The notes: generated by a model not told the origin, from the sequence alone. A stretch of 64,000 bases of DNA from an uncultured bacterium (GCA_964448115.1 CAYUVA010000003.1:1-64000), one strand, 5' to 3'; shown: positions 1-11,000, counted from the first letter of the stretch. A program made the numbers and translations.

Positions 1-2829
1 GAGAACCTATATTCACACCAGGGAGAGCTTTTCAATGCAGTGGTGAACGAAAAGCAAAATGCGGTAATAAGTACGCCTTTAGGCAGTGGCAAATCGACTA
101 TGGTAAATCTGCTCGCCCTGGCAAATATCATCACCGAGAATAAAAATGTGCTGTTTATCTTTGCTAGAGAATCAAAAGCAAAGCAAAGGTATCAGCAGCT
201 CCTGGACTGGATAAAGAATGCAAACTGGGGATGGCGAATCTCCATAGATTTTTTAAGCAAAGAGCTTAGCGAGCTTGATCGGCAAAGATTGGGATCGACC
301 TCGGACATAATGGTCGCATCATGGGAATCCTTGGATAATAACCTCGATTTTTTTATCCATGAAATTGGCGAGGAATATCTAGGTAATCTCGATTTGATCG
401 TTCTTGAGGATGTTGATTTTGGTGCTCTAAGTGAATCCGCCCATCTTTGCTTTATGCTAAAAAATATCTTGGTTGCAGCAGATGCCTTCAGAGCAACACC
501 AAAGACGATAATCACCACTAGAGGAATAAGTCATCTCCAGGAGATTATCCCTCGAATTATCGGCACCTCAAATTTTAAGGCTATCGAAAGCGATGGCAGC
601 CCAAGCAATGTAACCAAAACAGTCTTGTGGATGCCACCATTGGAGGACGACCCTTCAACAGATCTTCTAAGCGATTATCTTTATAAAAGAAAAGACTACA
701 TAGAGGAAGCGATATTATTAACCTCCGCATTTATCGTGGAGCAACATCTAAAGGTCGGTCTATACTTTACATCAGCCAAGTTCACCGAATCAGTGGTGAA
801 TCAAATTAAGCACCGGGCTATAGAATACATAAGAAAGATATCCCCTGGTGAACAGGCAATCGAGGCTAGGAAATTGAGCATTATTACCGATCTAAATGAG
901 CTTACTACTGAAGAATTAGGCAGCTTCGATTGCATTGTAATGACCGGTGTCCCCTTTGGATATGTCAATACACACAATGAAATGAATAAGATCCTGAAAA
1001 ATGGCGGCATCGCTATATGGTTACTCAGAAACGAAGCATTGTCTAACCTGATATTTAGACATCCTGAAATCTATAGAACAGAAATAAAGCAAAAGGCTTC
1101 ATTCCTGTTCGAGCATCCATACTTTAGACAGGAATATTTGAAAAAGATTTTCAACTCTCTGGGGAAAAGCAGATTTATAAAAAAAGACATTCTTTATCAA
1201 CTTTATGGAAAAGAATCTACCGATAACTCCTTAAATAAATCCTTGAAAGACGGCTTAATATTTTCCGATTCAAAAATCGATGATAATGTTGATGTCTATT
1301 ATCTCGCTGAGGATAAGCAATTTCCTCTACCAGACCTCGATCTTAATTGTGCTACTTTACAACATATCGAGCTTGTTGATGAGGCTAATAATCCAATCCT
1401 TAAATGTGATAAGCATCTGCTCTATTGGACTATTTTTGAAAATGCACTGGTTAATGATGACCAAAGAATATACCAGGTAGATAAAATAAATAAAGATAGG
1501 GTAGTACTTCGTGCTCAGACTGGTAATGATTTTATCGATACCCATGAGTTCTTCGATTGCTCCATAACCCTCAAGAGCATACAAAAAGCCATAACCAGAA
1601 CATCCCCACAAGATAACATCAGGTTCACCTTTTGCCTGGGGACAGCGGTAGTTAAAATCACCAATAAAGGTTACATAAATGTACCTAAAAACGAGGAACT
1701 CTGGGATGCCCATAAATTCAGTCGCCAACTTCCCACGCTTGAGATCGATACCAATATTTTGTGCCTGAAATTCGAGAATACCTCCTTCGGGGTGCTCCAC
1801 AGCTTCGCACACCTGCTCTCCATCCTTTTACCCACATTTATCCTTGGTACACAGCAGGCTATAAAAGTGAAGGTGGTCGATATAACCAGCTCTGCCACCG
1901 AGCAGAACGAACAAGGTAAAATATCAGGCGACCATATCTGTATCATCCCATTGGATCCACAAGCCACCAACCTGCTTAGGGATATCGCTGAACTTTTCGA
2001 GGGGGACAGCATATTTAAGGATGCTTATGATATCCTGACCAGTTGCTCTTGCAGAGATGGTTGCCATTTCTGCCTTCATACCTTCAAATGCTCACAGACC
2101 GATAGCTGCAATGAAAAACTGGATAAGAACGAATTGATAGAAATCCTAGGGCAATTTACAAATATGGAGCTTGAAGATACCGTCTATGCGCTTACTGACC
2201 CCAACCTACTGGTCAAAGAAGGGAATGAGGAGTTTTTAGGGGAGCTTAAGAAAATAATGACCGATAAAGAAACGGGCTTATATAAAAAGATATTTGGCAA
2301 TATCGGGATCATCGATAAGCCAGTCAAGGTGGTGTTCATGAGCCAGGAAAACAAGAAAAGATATGCTGCTAGGGGATTATTTACCGGACATCAAGTGGAG
2401 ATCGCAAAGAATATGAGCAGAAGAAGCTGCCTGTCAGTAGTGGCTCACGAGTACATGCACAACTGGCAAAACGAAAAGATGGCAAGAGAACTAATGCCTG
2501 CACCTCATATTCCATTCGATGGAAAACTGTATATAGAGGGTCATGCGTCCTGGGGTGCTTTTAAGATTGATGAATTCTATGACCTTCGAGGATACATGTA
2601 CTCAATGGAGATCTATAAAGACGACGAGTACGGCGAGGGCTTCGACACTTTTCGATGGCTGGAGAAGAACTATGGAATGGCAGCCGTGCTTCGATTCGCA
2701 AGCAGCAATCAGCTTCCCAAAGGTTTGAATGAAGAGAAGCTACTCGAGGAATCTGGCACCACGGCTGCTGTACAAAGATGGGAGCAAAAGAAAAAGGAAC
2801 AAAGTCCGCCATCAGATGAAAGTGATTAA
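1..2829 (+). CDS. 5'-truncated MrfA/Hrq1-like SF2 helicase-fold protein (degenerate motifs) with DUF1998 Zn domain and C-terminal DA1-like HEXXH metallopeptidase
   Basis: Frame is open from base 1 (ENLYSHQGELF..., the LYSHQ Q-motif). Walker A TPLGSGKS, DGSP motif, DUF1998 LHSFAHLL and CSCRDGCHFC, then AHEYMH...EGHASW...YGEGF. Confidence 0.75.
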   Translation, partial: ENLYSHQGELFNAVVNEKQNAVISTPLGSGKSTMVNLLALANIITENKNVLFIFARESKAKQRYQQLLDWIKNANWGWRISIDFLSKELSELDRQRLGSTSDIMVASWESLDNNLDFFIHEIGEEYLGNLDLIVLEDVDFGALSESAHLCFMLKNILVAADAFRATPKTIITTRGISHLQEIIPRIIGTSNFKAIESDGSPSNVTKTVLWMPPLEDDPSTDLLSDYLYKRKDYIEEAILLTSAFIVEQHLKVGLYFTSAKFTESVVNQIKHRAIEYIRKISPGEQAIEARKLSIITDLNELTTEELGSFDCIVMTGVPFGYVNTHNEMNKILKNGGIAIWLLRNEALSNLIFRHPEIYRTEIKQKASFLFEHPYFRQEYLKKIFNSLGKSRFIKKDILYQLYGKESTDNSLNKSLKDGLIFSDSKIDDNVDVYYLAEDKQFPLPDLDLNCATLQHIELVDEANNPILKCDKHLLYWTIFENALVNDDQRIYQVDKINKDRVVLRAQTGNDFIDTHEFFDCSITLKSIQKAITRTSPQDNIRFTFCLGTAVVKITNKGYINVPKNEELWDAHKFSRQLPTLEIDTNILCLKFENTSFGVLHSFAHLLSILLPTFILGTQQAIKVKVVDITSSATEQNEQGKISGDHICIIPLDPQATNLLRDIAELFEGDSIFKDAYDILTSCSCRDGCHFCLHTFKCSQTDSCNEKLDKNELIEILGQFTNMELEDTVYALTDPNLLVKEGNEEFLGELKKIMTDKETGLYKKIFGNIGIIDKPVKVVFMSQENKKRYAARGLFTGHQVEIAKNMSRRSCLSVVAHEYMHNWQNEKMARELMPAPHIPFDGKLYIEGHASWGAFKIDEFYDLRGYMYSMEIYKDDEYGEGFDTFRWLEKNYGMAAVLRFASSNQLPKGLNEEKLLEESGTTAAVQRWEQKKKEQSPPSDESD

Positions 2830-8085: not shown

Positions 8086-11000
8086 ATGATACTAGGTGCT
8101 TTTGATATCATCTGGCTTCTAATACTTTTGTTTTTAGCTCTCCTTGCGTCGTATCTGCTGCTTAGGCATGGCAGTAGATCTATACCCTTAGTGATCTTCA
8201 TAGTCGGGCTGTTTGTCAGCTATGTGGGGCAGGCTTACCTGCAGGTGGATCAGGTCAGGCTAGGCTACATTATTTACATTCCTGCGGTCTTTTTTGCCTT
8301 GATTGCCTTTTACCTCCAAAACAAGAAACAGTTTCATCATGTTGAGATAATCTTCCCCCCCCGGTTGGAGCTTCTTATGGCAGCTCTGGCTATCGGAGTA
8401 GGCATCTTCTTTAAGCTGTATAAGGTAACAACCTTGCCAGCCTCGCCTGGTACCGAAGAATGTGTTCATGGGATGCATGCCCTGTGGGTTCTCGATTACG
8501 GGTGGAGATACCCTATCCAGGTTCAGGGAGTTACCTGGTCTATCGGAATTTATATCTGGGCATTGAGTCTTCATTTACTCGGCGTGAGCTTATTTAACTT
8601 GAGACTCCCTATCATCATTTTGAACATGGTTGCTCTATTCCTTTATTATTTTACCTTTCGTCGCTTGTTCAACAATCGAGTAGCCTTCGTGGCTTGTACC
8701 CTGTTCTCCATAATGCTTTGGAATAATGCCATCACCAGAGTCCCTCAAAAGGAGTGCTTTGTACCATTTTTCACCATCGCATCTTTATTTTTCCTGGTTA
8801 GAGCCATAGATATGAACAAGCTACTGGATTATATTCTCGCCTCATTGTTCATCGTTTTGGGCAACTACACCTTTCAGGGCTTTCGCACAGCAGATCTGAT
8901 GCTAGCTGCTGCCTTCATGTATAGCGTCGTATTCAAGAAGCGATACTTCAGATGTAACTGGTGGCGAATCGTGGTGATGCTGATAGCCATGGCAGCCTTC
9001 TTTTATCCATTCATCAAGCTCAAGGGGATAGTTTATCTCTTGCCAGATCACGGGGTTGCGGTTATGGGCGAGCATACCTCTGAACAAAAGATGAAAGAGT
9101 CAGCGTTATTTGCTCTCCAGATGTACAATTACAAGGTCTTCGGGCAGCAGCCATTCAACTATACGGATAGGCGATACAAAGATACTATACTACAATGGGG
9201 AAGGGATTTGGGCAACATACTTATTAACAAGACTCAATATACTTCGAATAAGACCATGAGATGGATTTTAGCCACCCTTGGTCAAGCCTCCCGCGCCCTT
9301 GTCCTCCGTCCTAACAAGGTTGATATTATGAATATCTACCTGAAGGTCTTCTTCACCTTTGGATGGATATTGTGTTTGATACGCTTCACTCGGCATGGAT
9401 ATGGCTTCTGTTTCACCTACCTGTTATTCGGCACACTTGGTGCAATGGTGCTTGAGGGAATTTTACGGCGTTTCAATGCCATACAGGTGATAATCCCGGT
9501 TATGAGTGCAATCGGGCTTGATTGGGGGCTATGTGCACTGGCAAAGCTGAAAAGAGGGGGATGGCGAAGGAGATATGCTACATTCGCCCTAATACTTTTA
9601 GCGGTGTTCTCCATGTCCAATTTCTACATATACAAGGTGCATATCCTGCAGCACTACAACCTTATGGGGTGGGTTGATCTGATTGTCGATTATTTCAAGC
9701 GCGATTTCAAGGACTACGATATGGTTCCTCGAACCGGCACCCCTGATTACATGAGTTTCTTGACCTGGGAGGTTACTCGAAATCTCGATTATTACCTGCA
9801 TCCCGAGCTTGCCTGGGAGCAGGTCTTTCCACCGCATCATAAGTACTTCAAGCCATACAAGGGCGTTGCCTATATCTTTGATTATCAGAATATTAATTTC
9901 CGAGAGTTCAACATGGTCATGCAATACTGCCCTAACACCACCTTCAAGGTATTGAAAGATGGTAACAAGCCAATCCACCTGGTATTGAAAGTGCCACGAG
10001 GCGACCTGGATAGAATCTTTGGGTTAAATACATGCTTCTATCGCTCACGAAGCGACCTGAACCAAGATCTTGCTTTTAAGAGGGGCAATTACTTTAGGGC
10101 TAAGGATTTCGAGCTCATAGGCGATGTTAATTTAAGCTTTCCCGTTTACTGCAAATGGGAGGGATCGATCTTGGTGTCGAAAGGTGATGAATATCATGTC
10201 TGCATCGATTCTGAGGGCTTTGGAGAGCTTTATATAGATGACCACTTGATGTATAAGCAGGGAGCTGATAACCAGGTTAAATTCATTGAAAAACAATACC
10301 TCTTAAAGGGTTTGCACAAGTTGGTGATTCTCGATGAGATCTCCCATAAAAACGACCGAGTCGAGCTTTCATGGTGGATAAGCGAACATCATTACTACCG
10401 TACTCCGCGTAAGGTGGATGACTTCAGGATTCTAACCGTCTCTGCTGAGGGGAATCCGCTCAGTGCGCCCAAGGTTAATACGAGACTACCCAAGGCGAAG
10501 CTTTTGACACACAAGAAAGGGATCCTCTCGGATTACCTGGAAAGGGCGAACACCAGCGAGCTTAACATGGTGGCTGACCGATGGGATAATCTATATATCT
10601 TCAACCACAACTCCCATTACCCGCTTCAGATTACAGCAAATTATGAGCTTAATCCCATAAGAAAGGAGGGGTACTCTAAGACTTTATCCAAGATTTTCGA
10701 TGTGGAGTTCGATTCCTCAGGCAGAATATTGATCGTATCATGGGATAAATTCTCTGCACTTATATCCAAACAGGAGTCCTCAACATTATTACGACTTTTT
10801 GACCAAGACCTTAACTTGCTGCGGGAAGAGGATGTCTTCGTTTGGTATGTGGATGGTGCCCTTGATTCGCAAAACAACCTGTGGGTTAGAACCGGCTATC
10901 CAGAACACCTTTATTTAAGTAAATTCAATGATCGACTGCTGCATGTCAAGGAGTGGAGCTTTAAGCACCTGGTAAATCATCAACTCACCCATATTTCGAG

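Follow-up and report, generated by a model that had tools for sequence, protein, structure and literature searches.

The window described here, 64,000 nucleotides of an uncultured bacterium (GCA_964448115.1, CAYUVA010000003.1:1-64000), opens with a gene whose product, P0001, can be described with high confidence as a disabled helicase body of the MrfA/YprA type joined to an MZB (DUF1998) domain and an intact gluzincin peptidase. Its family occupies the last position of a conserved four-gene cassette, behind genes for a vWA protein, a tubulin-like GTPase (FtsZl1/Tubulin_2) and an unnamed protein, B5. P0001 appears to be the short soluble form of the partner listed as B12 in vWA–FtsZl1 cassettes, a family otherwise known only from a supplementary table, and its sequence identifies the B12 family as a probable inactivated MrfA-type helicase carrying a DA1-related protease, a relationship unrecognised in the accessible literature. 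We propose, at a probability of roughly 0.45, that the cassette moves horizontally and serves in sensing or in conflict, in a defence-like manner, with a latent protease on a pseudo-helicase scaffold as its output.

Frame 1 of the plus strand is open from nucleotide 1 to a stop codon at 2827–2829 and encodes 942 residues; all of the motifs named in a preliminary description of this DNA (LYSHQ, GSGKS, ARESKA, LEDVD, TTR, DGSP, CSCRDGCHFC, AHEYMH, EGHASW and YGEGF) lie in this frame. Because window base 1 is the first base of contig C3 in an 86-contig genome, the N-terminus, which that description placed outside the window, has been lost to the assembly. About 55 residues are missing, residue 57 of P0002, the nearest full-length relative, aligning with residue 2 of P0001, and the GTG at window position 40 is an internal codon rather than a start. 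The complete protein is predicted to be cytoplasmic, about 1000 residues long and without a transmembrane helix. The features of the gene, all on the plus strand, are as follows.

1–2829, plus: whole open reading frame, 942 codons and stop; pseudo-helicase–MZB–zincin, 'B12' family of FtsZl1 operons, 5'-truncated
1–645 (residues 1–215), plus: RecA1-like lobe (Pfam DEAD, 8.3e-10, residues 5–139; alignment with 12 canonical helicases)
7–21 (residues 3–7), plus: Q motif LYSHQ, kept
82–96 (residues 28–32), plus: P-loop GSGKS (Walker A), kept
163–180 (residues 55–60), plus: ARESKA, degenerate motif Ia
403–417 (residues 135–139), plus: LEDVD, Walker B remnant replacing DExH
514–522 (residues 172–174), plus: TTR, replacing SAT (motif III)
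592–603 (residues 198–201), plus: DGSP, kept
628–639, plus: WMPP
646–1110 (residues ~216–370, approximate boundary), plus: RecA2-like lobe, collinear with MrfA; motifs IV, V and VI unrecognisable
1111–1785 (residues 371–595), plus: connecting region, collinear with the MrfA middle domains (profile match to 6znp_A)
1786–2160 (residues 596–720), plus: MZB (DUF1998), from a confident AlphaFold model and its match to 6znp_A; Pfam MZB sub-threshold
2044–2073 (residues 682–691), plus: zinc knuckle CSCRDGCHFC, with C682, C684, C688 and C691
2215–2784 (residues ~739–928), plus: gluzincin peptidase of the DA1-like clade, from structural alignment to M1 domains, invariant residues and a profile comparison (hhalign)
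2443–2460 (residues 815–820), plus: AHEYMH, with HEYMH at 2446–2460 (residues 816–820)
2536–2541 (E846–G847), plus: third ligand, opening EGHASW (residues 846–851)
2629–2643 (residues 877–881), plus: YGEGF, with Y877

The helicase-derived part is predicted to be a complete superfamily 2 body of the MrfA/YprA type, with two RecA-like lobes, connecting domains and MZB. A family profile matched MrfA/YprA of B. subtilis (6znp_A) with an E value of 4e-43, profile positions 25–714 aligning collinearly with residues 23–732 of the 751-residue chain; the remaining PDB matches of the profile reach the first RecA lobe only. An AlphaFold model of residues 596–942, computed with an 81-row alignment, has a mean predicted local distance difference test score (pLDDT) of 91.7 and a predicted template-modelling score of 0.85 (a run on P0001 without an alignment gave a pLDDT of 32.7 and is not usable). 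In a VIA-align comparison with 48,161 chains, model residues 1–125 (protein residues 596–720) superposed on residues 643–749 of 6znp_A with a Z score of 9.9 and a root-mean-square deviation (r.m.s.d.) of 2.4 Å over 105 residues. These matches bear out the MrfA/DUF1998 assignment of the preliminary description. The Pfam MZB match of P0001 itself (1.2e-4, 23.1 bits) lies slightly below the cut-off of 24.2, and NCBIfam returned a partial DEAH-helicase match far under its cut-off. WHD_HRQ1 matches are present in some relatives and, among 45 family members scanned with Pfam, DEAD was found in 29 and MZB in 23 at E ≤ 0.01.

From its sequence, this body is predicted to lack the residues that hydrolysing ATP and moving along DNA require. 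P0001 has lost motifs Ia, II, III and VI: HNEMNKILKNGG occupies the position expected for motif VI (QRxGRxGR), alignment with canonical MrfA-like helicases located no intact copy of motif Ia, II, III or VI elsewhere in the protein, and Pfam Helicase_C has no match in P0001 or in any of the 45 relatives. When 36 family members were aligned by L-INS-i to 12 canonical helicases, motifs Ia, II, III, IV, V and VI proved degenerate in the family, as judged by eye. An internal control is provided by a canonical MrfA/YprA-type helicase in the same genome (C17:57883-60159, equivalent to L024:1360-3636, plus strand), in which all motifs are intact (TASGKT, DELH, SAT, QRSGRVGR and CDCEVGCPAC).

A word-indexed homologue search returned three proteins, among them P0002 (929 residues), which has the same architecture as P0001. 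An exhaustive HMMER search of 1.84 billion representatives with a profile of P0001 and P0002 matched 908 proteins with an E value of 1e-3 or lower, of which 255 also lie within 1e-10 and 70 within 1e-30; the best 150 of the 908 matches were retained. When 154 proteins were aligned to a 12-sequence family profile and sorted by their coverage of P0001, 90 covered both the N-terminal 200 positions and positions 800–899, 29 only the N-terminal and 30 only the C-terminal part; the other five were unclassified and were excluded. Of the N-terminal-only proteins, 25 served as a canonical MrfA-like control, and the other four resemble fragments or peptidase-less relatives of the family.

The motif counts separate the 90 proteins with both parts from this control. 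DExH is found in 0/90 against 25/25, D-E at Walker B in 3/90 against 25/25 and GK[ST] at Walker A in 21/90 against 25/25; the Walker A lysine site, not tallied separately for the canonical 25, is occupied by lysine in 28 and by arginine in 37 of the 90. In the motif-VI columns glutamine occurs in at most 6/90 and the two arginines in 6/90 and 18/90, compared with Q 24, R 23 and R 21 among the 29 N-terminal-only proteins. The earlier picture of a degenerate helicase without motif VI thus holds for P0001, and DExH is missing from all 90 relatives. The glutamine of the Q motif is retained in 76/90, and lysine or arginine at the P-loop lysine site (GSG[KR][ST]) in 65/90. The peptidase signature is nearly constant, with HExxH in 88/90, EG in 90/90, and the tyrosine of YGxGF in 90/90, and the four cysteines of the zinc knuckle are kept in 80/90; among the 30 C-terminal-only proteins the corresponding counts are 30/30, 30/30, 30/30 and 22/30. 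The H/E/H/E/G/Y set is invariant in 81 aligned sequences, an alignment chosen by an HExxH regular expression from a family collected with a profile that includes the HExxH region. P0001 is about equally distant from all family members (20–23% identity), and the phylum of the window is represented in the species-representative genome collection by its own genome only, without close relatives there. One long family member, P0036 (1473 residues), has an extra C-terminal transglutaminase-like domain (DUF553, 2.2e-5).

In the model, the C-terminal half of P0001 consists of an MZB domain and, behind it, a gluzincin catalytic domain that lacks none of its catalytic residues, and the protease looks active. 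H816, E817 and H820 are present; E846, the third ligand, lies 26 residues past H820 and does not vary, and neither does Y877, which would suit a catalytic tyrosine. Model residues 144–333 (protein residues 739–928) matched the catalytic domains of M1 aminopeptidases with Z scores of 12.1–10.5, the best being that of the M1 enzyme peptidase F3 (1z1w_A; Z 12.1, r.m.s.d. 3.0 Å over 165 residues). Other matches to the C-terminal model were thermolysin (Z 9.4), SPRTN (6mdx_A, Z 7.0) and DrmB (7s9w_B, Z 6.7), values below about 8 being possible background according to the tool's own note. P0001 shares with M1 aminopeptidases and thermolysin-type gluzincins (1z1w, 5fwq and 4m65; Z 12.1–9.4) the catalytic fold and the HExxH, glutamate and tyrosine arrangement, but at identities of 9–18% and over the core only, and the N-terminal exopeptidase domain of the M1 enzymes has no counterpart in the matching part of the model. 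No PDB entry reached E ≤ 1e-3 in a Foldseek search with the model of residues 596–942; the weak matches at the head of its list were to M1 peptidases, to the peptidase domains of clostridial collagenases and to MrfA. Pfam gave only faint zincin matches at HExxH, and the ESM Atlas gave only weak MA-clan leads (0.88) for residues 700–942. The preliminary description had named three ways in which the fusion might fail, namely intact motifs II and VI at other positions, a C-terminus without zincin fold and relatives that do not conserve HExxH; the findings favour the fusion on each count, with neither motif intact elsewhere, a fold match at Z 12.1 and HExxH kept in 88/90.

The series HExxH.W ... 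EG ... YGxGF is typical of DA1, and P0001 shares it with plant DA1/DAR proteins and PF12315 (HExxH.W, EG..W/V, YG.GF); in P0001 the three elements lie at residues 816–822, 846–851 and 877–881. Against the Pfam DA1-like family PF12315, P0001 scores 12.5 bits (E 0.094) over the YGEGF stretch only, where the cut-off is 25, and none of the 45 relatives matches PF12315 at E ≤ 0.01. The family profile also finds stand-alone bacterial proteins of 200–385 residues, at E values of 1e-13 to 1e-18. Among 14 of these, four exceed the PF12315 cut-off (25.2–33.1 bits) and seven have a Pfam LIM match at E ≤ 0.01, three of them above the LIM cut-off. In an hhalign comparison the family aligned with ten stand-alone LIM/DA1-like proteins at 99.6% probability (E 9.5e-24) over 146 columns, spanning the whole peptidase domain. 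Since this links the family to proteins that pass PF12315, the label 'DA1-like' given earlier to P0001 is correct as a statement of homology and, by the Pfam rule, not as one of membership: the peptidase is best placed on a separate branch, with the MZB knuckle in LIM's place. Pfam detects no LIM domain in P0001, and the zinc knuckle lies about 125 residues ahead of HExxH. Plant DA1, in contrast, carries LIM/UIM, with LIM in the position that MZB takes in P0001. Activation of plant DA1 is ubiquitin-dependent, a property with no counterpart in P0001.

At five loci from Chloroflexia and metagenomes (L005, L006, L013, L059 and L067, with the match at about 10001) one or two vWA genes come right after a stand-alone LIM/DA1-like gene, so that a pairing of peptidase and vWA recurs there without helicase body or tubulin gene. 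At four near-identical loci (L018, L066, L068 and L069; match at 10001–10992) a 507-residue protein that the peptidase profile matches only weakly and in part is encoded downstream of proteins of 749–758 residues, one of them a vWA protein, and this may be another peptidase–vWA arrangement.

Gene neighbourhoods were examined at 20 loci from species-representative genomes and 47 from metagenomes, located by scans with a 12-row family alignment; their open reading frames were labelled with hidden Markov models built from the window's relatives and representatives were confirmed by Pfam. A relative covering more than 700 profile positions was present at 25 loci, 16 of which have at least 6 kb upstream. 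In 16/16 of the latter the order on one strand is vWA, Tubulin_2, an unnamed gene of 632–808 residues (B5) and the family gene last. The independent cases are fewer than 16, since L025/L026, L049/L050, L003/L033/L040 and L038/L039 are near-duplicates. The other nine loci end at contig edges, and one of these (L036) still has a tubulin fragment and the unnamed gene. The search for further examples of the architecture has yielded both 90 relatives with the two parts and a common vWA–Tubulin_2–B5 context.

The first member is predicted to be an exported vWA protein with a single late transmembrane helix and a cytoplasmic tail of about 100 residues; hydropathy gives an N-terminal signal or anchor and one helix 82–142 residues from the C-terminus, and the vWA domain is detected by Pfam. 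The vWA tails share a β-rich pattern (L022:2088-2414, minus strand, and 14 other loci) that is FHA-like by eye only; Pfam returned nothing in them at E ≤ 1. The second member is a cytoplasmic FtsZl1/Tubulin_2 GTPase of about 1040 residues (PF13809, 1e-36 to 1e-39) without a transmembrane helix by hydropathy. B5, of about 650 residues, has one or two central hydrophobic helices by the same measure, forming a membrane hairpin; it belongs to no Pfam family and matches only unnamed clusters in the ESM Atlas. The family protein occurs in short forms of 920–965 residues without a helix and in long forms of 1200–1470 residues with three or four N-terminal transmembrane helices, so predicted from hydropathy. 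Three of the four cassette proteins are predicted to be membrane-bound or exported. B5 evolves very fast (phmmer splits 22 copies into nine groups), the vWA proteins also diverge very fast, and the distribution of the cassette in the scans is patchy.

In the 16 complete cassettes the B5 and family genes are separated by −19 to +80 nucleotides, overlapping by 1–19 in nine and lying within 27 in 14. A complex prediction for B5 of locus L046 with residues 1–340 of its family protein gave a median interaction prediction score from aligned errors (ipSAE) of 0.36 (runs of 0.36, 0.57 and 0.01; best control 0.01), with a contact agreement of at least 3% and a partner pLDDT of at least 68. Of 157 solved complexes 116 attained the mark used, as did 2 of 215 mismatches, scores up to 0.60 occurring among these in only 18 of the 157 and in both mismatches; according to the tool itself, a pass of this kind is wrong in most cases, except where the pairing was already likely. 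The modelled complex thus lends weak support to a contact between B5 and the family protein.

Two of the missing upstream genes can probably be recognised elsewhere in the same genome. In tblastn, the L002 and L003 tubulin-like proteins matched contig C59 at 2049–1090 on the minus strand (E 5e-13 and 3e-17), where the following genes lie.

C59:1-2067, minus: Tubulin_2 gene (3.2e-36), cut by the contig end beyond codon 689
C59:2085-4634, minus: vWA gene; DxSxS-type motif intact, N-terminus signal-like, transmembrane helix late in the protein
C59:4684-5439, minus: MlaD-like gene

The reverse complement of C59, a gap and C3 together reproduce the order and strand of the 16 complete loci, and orientation, composition and synteny suggest that C59 and C3 are two halves of one cassette. 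The gap would be about 3 kb, to judge from the partner sizes (about 350 tubulin codons, 650 B5 codons and 55 P0001 codons). The P0001 gene, at 41.4% GC, is the lowest of 123 windows of 2829 nucleotides in the 64 kb (mean 47.2%, s.d. 2.7%), and its first half, at 39.4%, is the lowest of 90 windows, which agrees with the AT-rich 5' half noted earlier. The genome averages 48.1%; the tubulin and vWA genes on C59 have 31.1% and 43.9%, respectively.

Within the genome, no 21-mer from the first 200 nucleotides of the P0001 gene recurs elsewhere, and a search of the other contigs for the missing N-terminus gave a weak match on C5 (E 0.12). An open reading frame at the end of contig C78 (MAINPISY...) was rejected as the missing N-terminus, being unlike that of P0002. 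This 5322-nucleotide contig encodes a 947-residue AAA_30/RecD-like P-loop protein (by eye) and a 593-residue helical protein, with the first 39 codons of a helicase-like gene, the MAINPISY... frame, at its very end; it is unrelated to the P0001 gene.

Several genes recur around the cassette. A membrane-anchored MlaD/MCE-like gene lies upstream of it or just after the family gene and may be a fifth component, pointing to the envelope; CvpA and M48 peptidase genes recur upstream. A protein of 1069–1210 residues with a C-terminal adenosine deaminase domain adjoins the family gene at four loci of one subgroup (Pfam A_deaminase, 8e-44 and 1.5e-37 in the two scanned, L003 and L045); PADLOC matches the deaminase part of the L003 protein to CARF_ADA (9e-84), and its large N-terminal part has no family. 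The neighbours located are as follows.

L022:4684-5439, minus: MlaD-like gene, the same gene as that on C59
L025:12050-13429: MlaD-like gene
L027:11146-12417: MlaD-like gene
L030:11515-12795: MlaD-like gene
L049:2943-3392: MlaD-like gene
L002:12842-13474: MlaD-like gene
L003:12695-15904, plus: adenosine deaminase-domain protein
L033:12749-16147, plus: adenosine deaminase-domain protein
L040:12742-16074, plus: adenosine deaminase-domain protein
L045:12545-16177, minus: adenosine deaminase-domain protein

MlaD-like neighbours are also present in L026 and L054. In L025 and L026, which have the long form, the family gene and the MlaD-like gene are followed by a second Tubulin_2 gene (1017 residues; L025:13524-13838, L026:5400-8500 approximately) and then by genes for a TPR protein and a 1023-residue protein without a family.

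Operons that combine FtsZl1 and vWA were defined by comparative genomics, with a proposed role in membrane or surface remodelling (Makarova & Koonin, 2010; Biol Direct 5:33, PMC2875224). That article, in a table of its Additional file 5 that also covers Ruminococcus lactaris, lists for Bacteroides capillosus BACCAP_04124 (vWA), BACCAP_04123 (FtsZl1), BACCAP_04122 (B5, 658 residues) and BACCAP_04121 (B12, 1435 residues), with RUMLAC_01526 as a second B12 member; the listed B12 proteins have 1418–1435 residues and are membrane-associated. The P0001 family takes the same slot in the same gene order (vWA, FtsZl1, a B5 of about 660 residues, B12), and because the layout is identical and the sizes match the long forms we equate P0001 with B12 and the unnamed gene with B5, a match of layout and not of alignment. 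The zinc finger listed for B12 would correspond to the MZB knuckle, and P0001 differs from the listed members in being short and soluble, of about 1000 residues, without a transmembrane helix. A zincin and zinc-finger partner is already listed in this 2010 supplement, and to that extent the finding is not wholly new. The word 'helicase' occurs neither in the main text nor in the six supplementary files searched, so that the helicase body and its link to a DA1-like peptidase are not described there. No publication giving the dead-helicase and zincin reading was found in the accessible literature, outside which most subscription journals lie, and FtsZl1 operons have in the same literature only comparative-genomic treatments and no functional study.

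With MrfA/YprA and Hrq1/DUF1998 proteins P0001 shares collinearity from the Q motif to the zinc knuckle, the MZB fold, DGSP and the four cysteines; it and its family differ in the loss of motifs Ia, II, III and VI and in the peptidase added after MZB. MrfA pairs with an MrfB-type exonuclease gene, whereas the P0001 gene lies in a membrane/tubulin cassette and not beside such a gene. DUF1998/MZB helicases also occur in DISARM and Druantia, whose DrmB and DruE are taken to be active helicases. Both share MZB with P0001 (DrmB by structure, Z 6.7; DruE1 by profile, 6.3e-6), but there is no full-length match and the DISARM and Druantia partner genes are absent. Sets of tubulin, vWA and GTPase genes have been interpreted as conflict systems in which NTP-dependent assembly may act as a threshold switch (Kaur, Burroughs, Iyer & Aravind, 2020; eLife 9:e52696, PMC7159879). 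Like the P0001 cassette, those systems combine tubulin homologues and membrane vWA proteins with variable enzymatic partners; unlike it, they are centred on GAP1-type GTPases and HSP70. The available passages of that article mention 'helicase' seven times and DUF1998 not at all, and do not describe a pseudo-helicase–zincin partner.

The proposed sensing or conflict system would work as follows. A ligand signal received by the surface vWA protein would be relayed across the membrane into GTP-dependent assembly of the tubulin-like protein, and this assembly would switch the latent protease on. The pseudo-helicase body, immobile on DNA and no motor, would be a scaffold or regulatory unit that docks the protease to the membrane complex, probably through B5, and may keep a nucleotide bound without hydrolysis (Q-motif glutamine in 76/90, P-loop lysine or arginine in 65/90). 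Working on the cytoplasmic side of the membrane together with the tubulin-like protein, B5 and the tail of the vWA protein, the protease would cut a partner or cellular proteins. The idea that a dead helicase gates a protease, put forward in the preliminary description, is retained here as a suggestion to which the surviving Q motif and the GSG[KR][ST] loop (lysine 28 and arginine 37 of 90) lend a little weight. Nucleic-acid sensing by P0001 is doubtful, because the DNA-contacting motif Ia has been lost along with motifs III and VI.

In favour of a conflict system are the AT-rich composition of the cassette (41.4%, and 31.1% for the tubulin gene, against 48.1% for the genome), its patchy spread, the fast evolution of B5, the adenosine deaminase neighbours and the classing of tubulin, vWA and GTPase gene sets as conflict systems by Kaur and colleagues. 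A number of observations weigh against it. Defence models offer little: PADLOC-DB v2 gives only partial matches on P0001, the best being that to DruE1, over about 40–43 residues at the zinc knuckle; ten of 11 cassette-region proteins have no match, the exception being the neighbouring adenosine deaminase protein; and a scan for known defence systems, as had been suggested, found none of the PADLOC system models to match P0001 or its partners. The MlaD-like, CvpA and M48 neighbours suggest the cell envelope, not immunity, and what flanks the cassette is for the most part ordinary, ABC transporter and sigma-54 regulator genes among others; in the window itself the genes downstream of P0001, translated and judged by eye, are of the housekeeping kind (an ArsA-like ATPase, a methylthioadenosine phosphorylase-like protein, a PfkB-type kinase, era and ybeY). 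The suggested union of C59 and C3 comes from orientation, composition and synteny rather than from sequence across the gap, and a tblastn search of the binned genome with B5 from L002 and from L003 gave no homologue. The predicted contact between B5 and the family protein is weak, with one of the three runs at 0.01. Finally, HExxH is lost in two of the 90 relatives, and some of the conservation at the zincin site arises by selection of the sequences, since both the profile and the regular expression contain HExxH.

In the alternative that survives best, the cassette makes or remodels a structure of the membrane or the surface, and the zincin is a maturation or turnover protease for its partners rather than an immune output. 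Such a remodelling machine is the published hypothesis for FtsZl1 operons (PMC2875224). It agrees with the membrane-bound or exported nature of three of the four proteins, with the MlaD-like genes beside the cassette (on C59 and in L025, L026, L027, L030, L054, L049 and L002) and the CvpA and M48 genes upstream, and with the mostly housekeeping flanks. We nevertheless consider it somewhat unlikely: AT-rich composition and patchy spread speak for an accessory module that is mobile, divergence is very fast in B5 and in the vWA proteins, and the retention of a helicase body is not explained. Improbable, in our estimation, is the view to which the preliminary description leads if taken literally, that P0001, on its own or with other partners, senses nucleic acid or a nucleotide after the fashion of MrfA, DISARM or Druantia and gates its own protease apart from the tubulin cassette. 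The similarity to DrmB (7s9w_B) and to DruE1 at the zinc knuckle, the partly kept Q motif and P-loop and the AT-rich gene would suit it, but the gene stands behind vWA, Tubulin_2 and B5 in 16/16 informative loci as the fixed last member of the cassette, the PADLOC matches are short with no system model that fits, and motifs Ia (the DNA-contacting one), III and VI are lost; P0001 is accordingly not regarded as an autonomous module of this kind. That the degenerate motifs mark a functionless, drifting gene is very improbable, for although many motifs are lost and identity to every relative is low (20–23%), the 942-codon frame has no stop, the fold is predicted confidently, the zincin residues and zinc knuckle are invariant or nearly so in about 90 distant relatives and the gene order holds in 16/16. 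A helicase-guided protease for DNA–protein crosslinks or mitomycin-type lesions, which would join the logic of MrfA, active in mitomycin C repair (PMC7797055), to that of SPRTN/Wss1-like proteases (6mdx_A, Z 7.0), is the least credible of all, given the lost ATPase and translocation motifs, the intact canonical MrfA in the same genome, the constant linkage to membrane and tubulin-like partners and a Z score within the background range of VIA-align.

If the sensing or conflict proposal is right, P0001 would supply an assayable output enzyme for FtsZl1/Tubulin_2–vWA operons, which are widespread, in the form of a zincin with its own glutamate-to-alanine control, and of all versions of the family its short soluble one is the easiest to express. 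It also poses a question about pseudo-enzymes, namely whether a helicase body without DExH and motif VI, but with its Q motif and a GSG[KR][ST] loop, binds nucleotide and how it may control a protease. An outside-in immune or sensing device, in which a vWA receptor acts through a tubulin-like polymer on a DA1-type protease mounted on an ex-helicase that serves as a non-hydrolysing nucleotide switch, is a bolder and unlikely construction. If true, it would mean that the plant LIM–DA1 unit of zinc module and peptidase descends from a bacterial module with vWA partners, an origin supported by the stand-alone LIM/DA1-like genes that precede vWA genes at L005, L006, L013, L059 and L067. The plant growth regulator DA1 is in any case tied to a bacterial peptidase clade that repeatedly adjoins vWA proteins.

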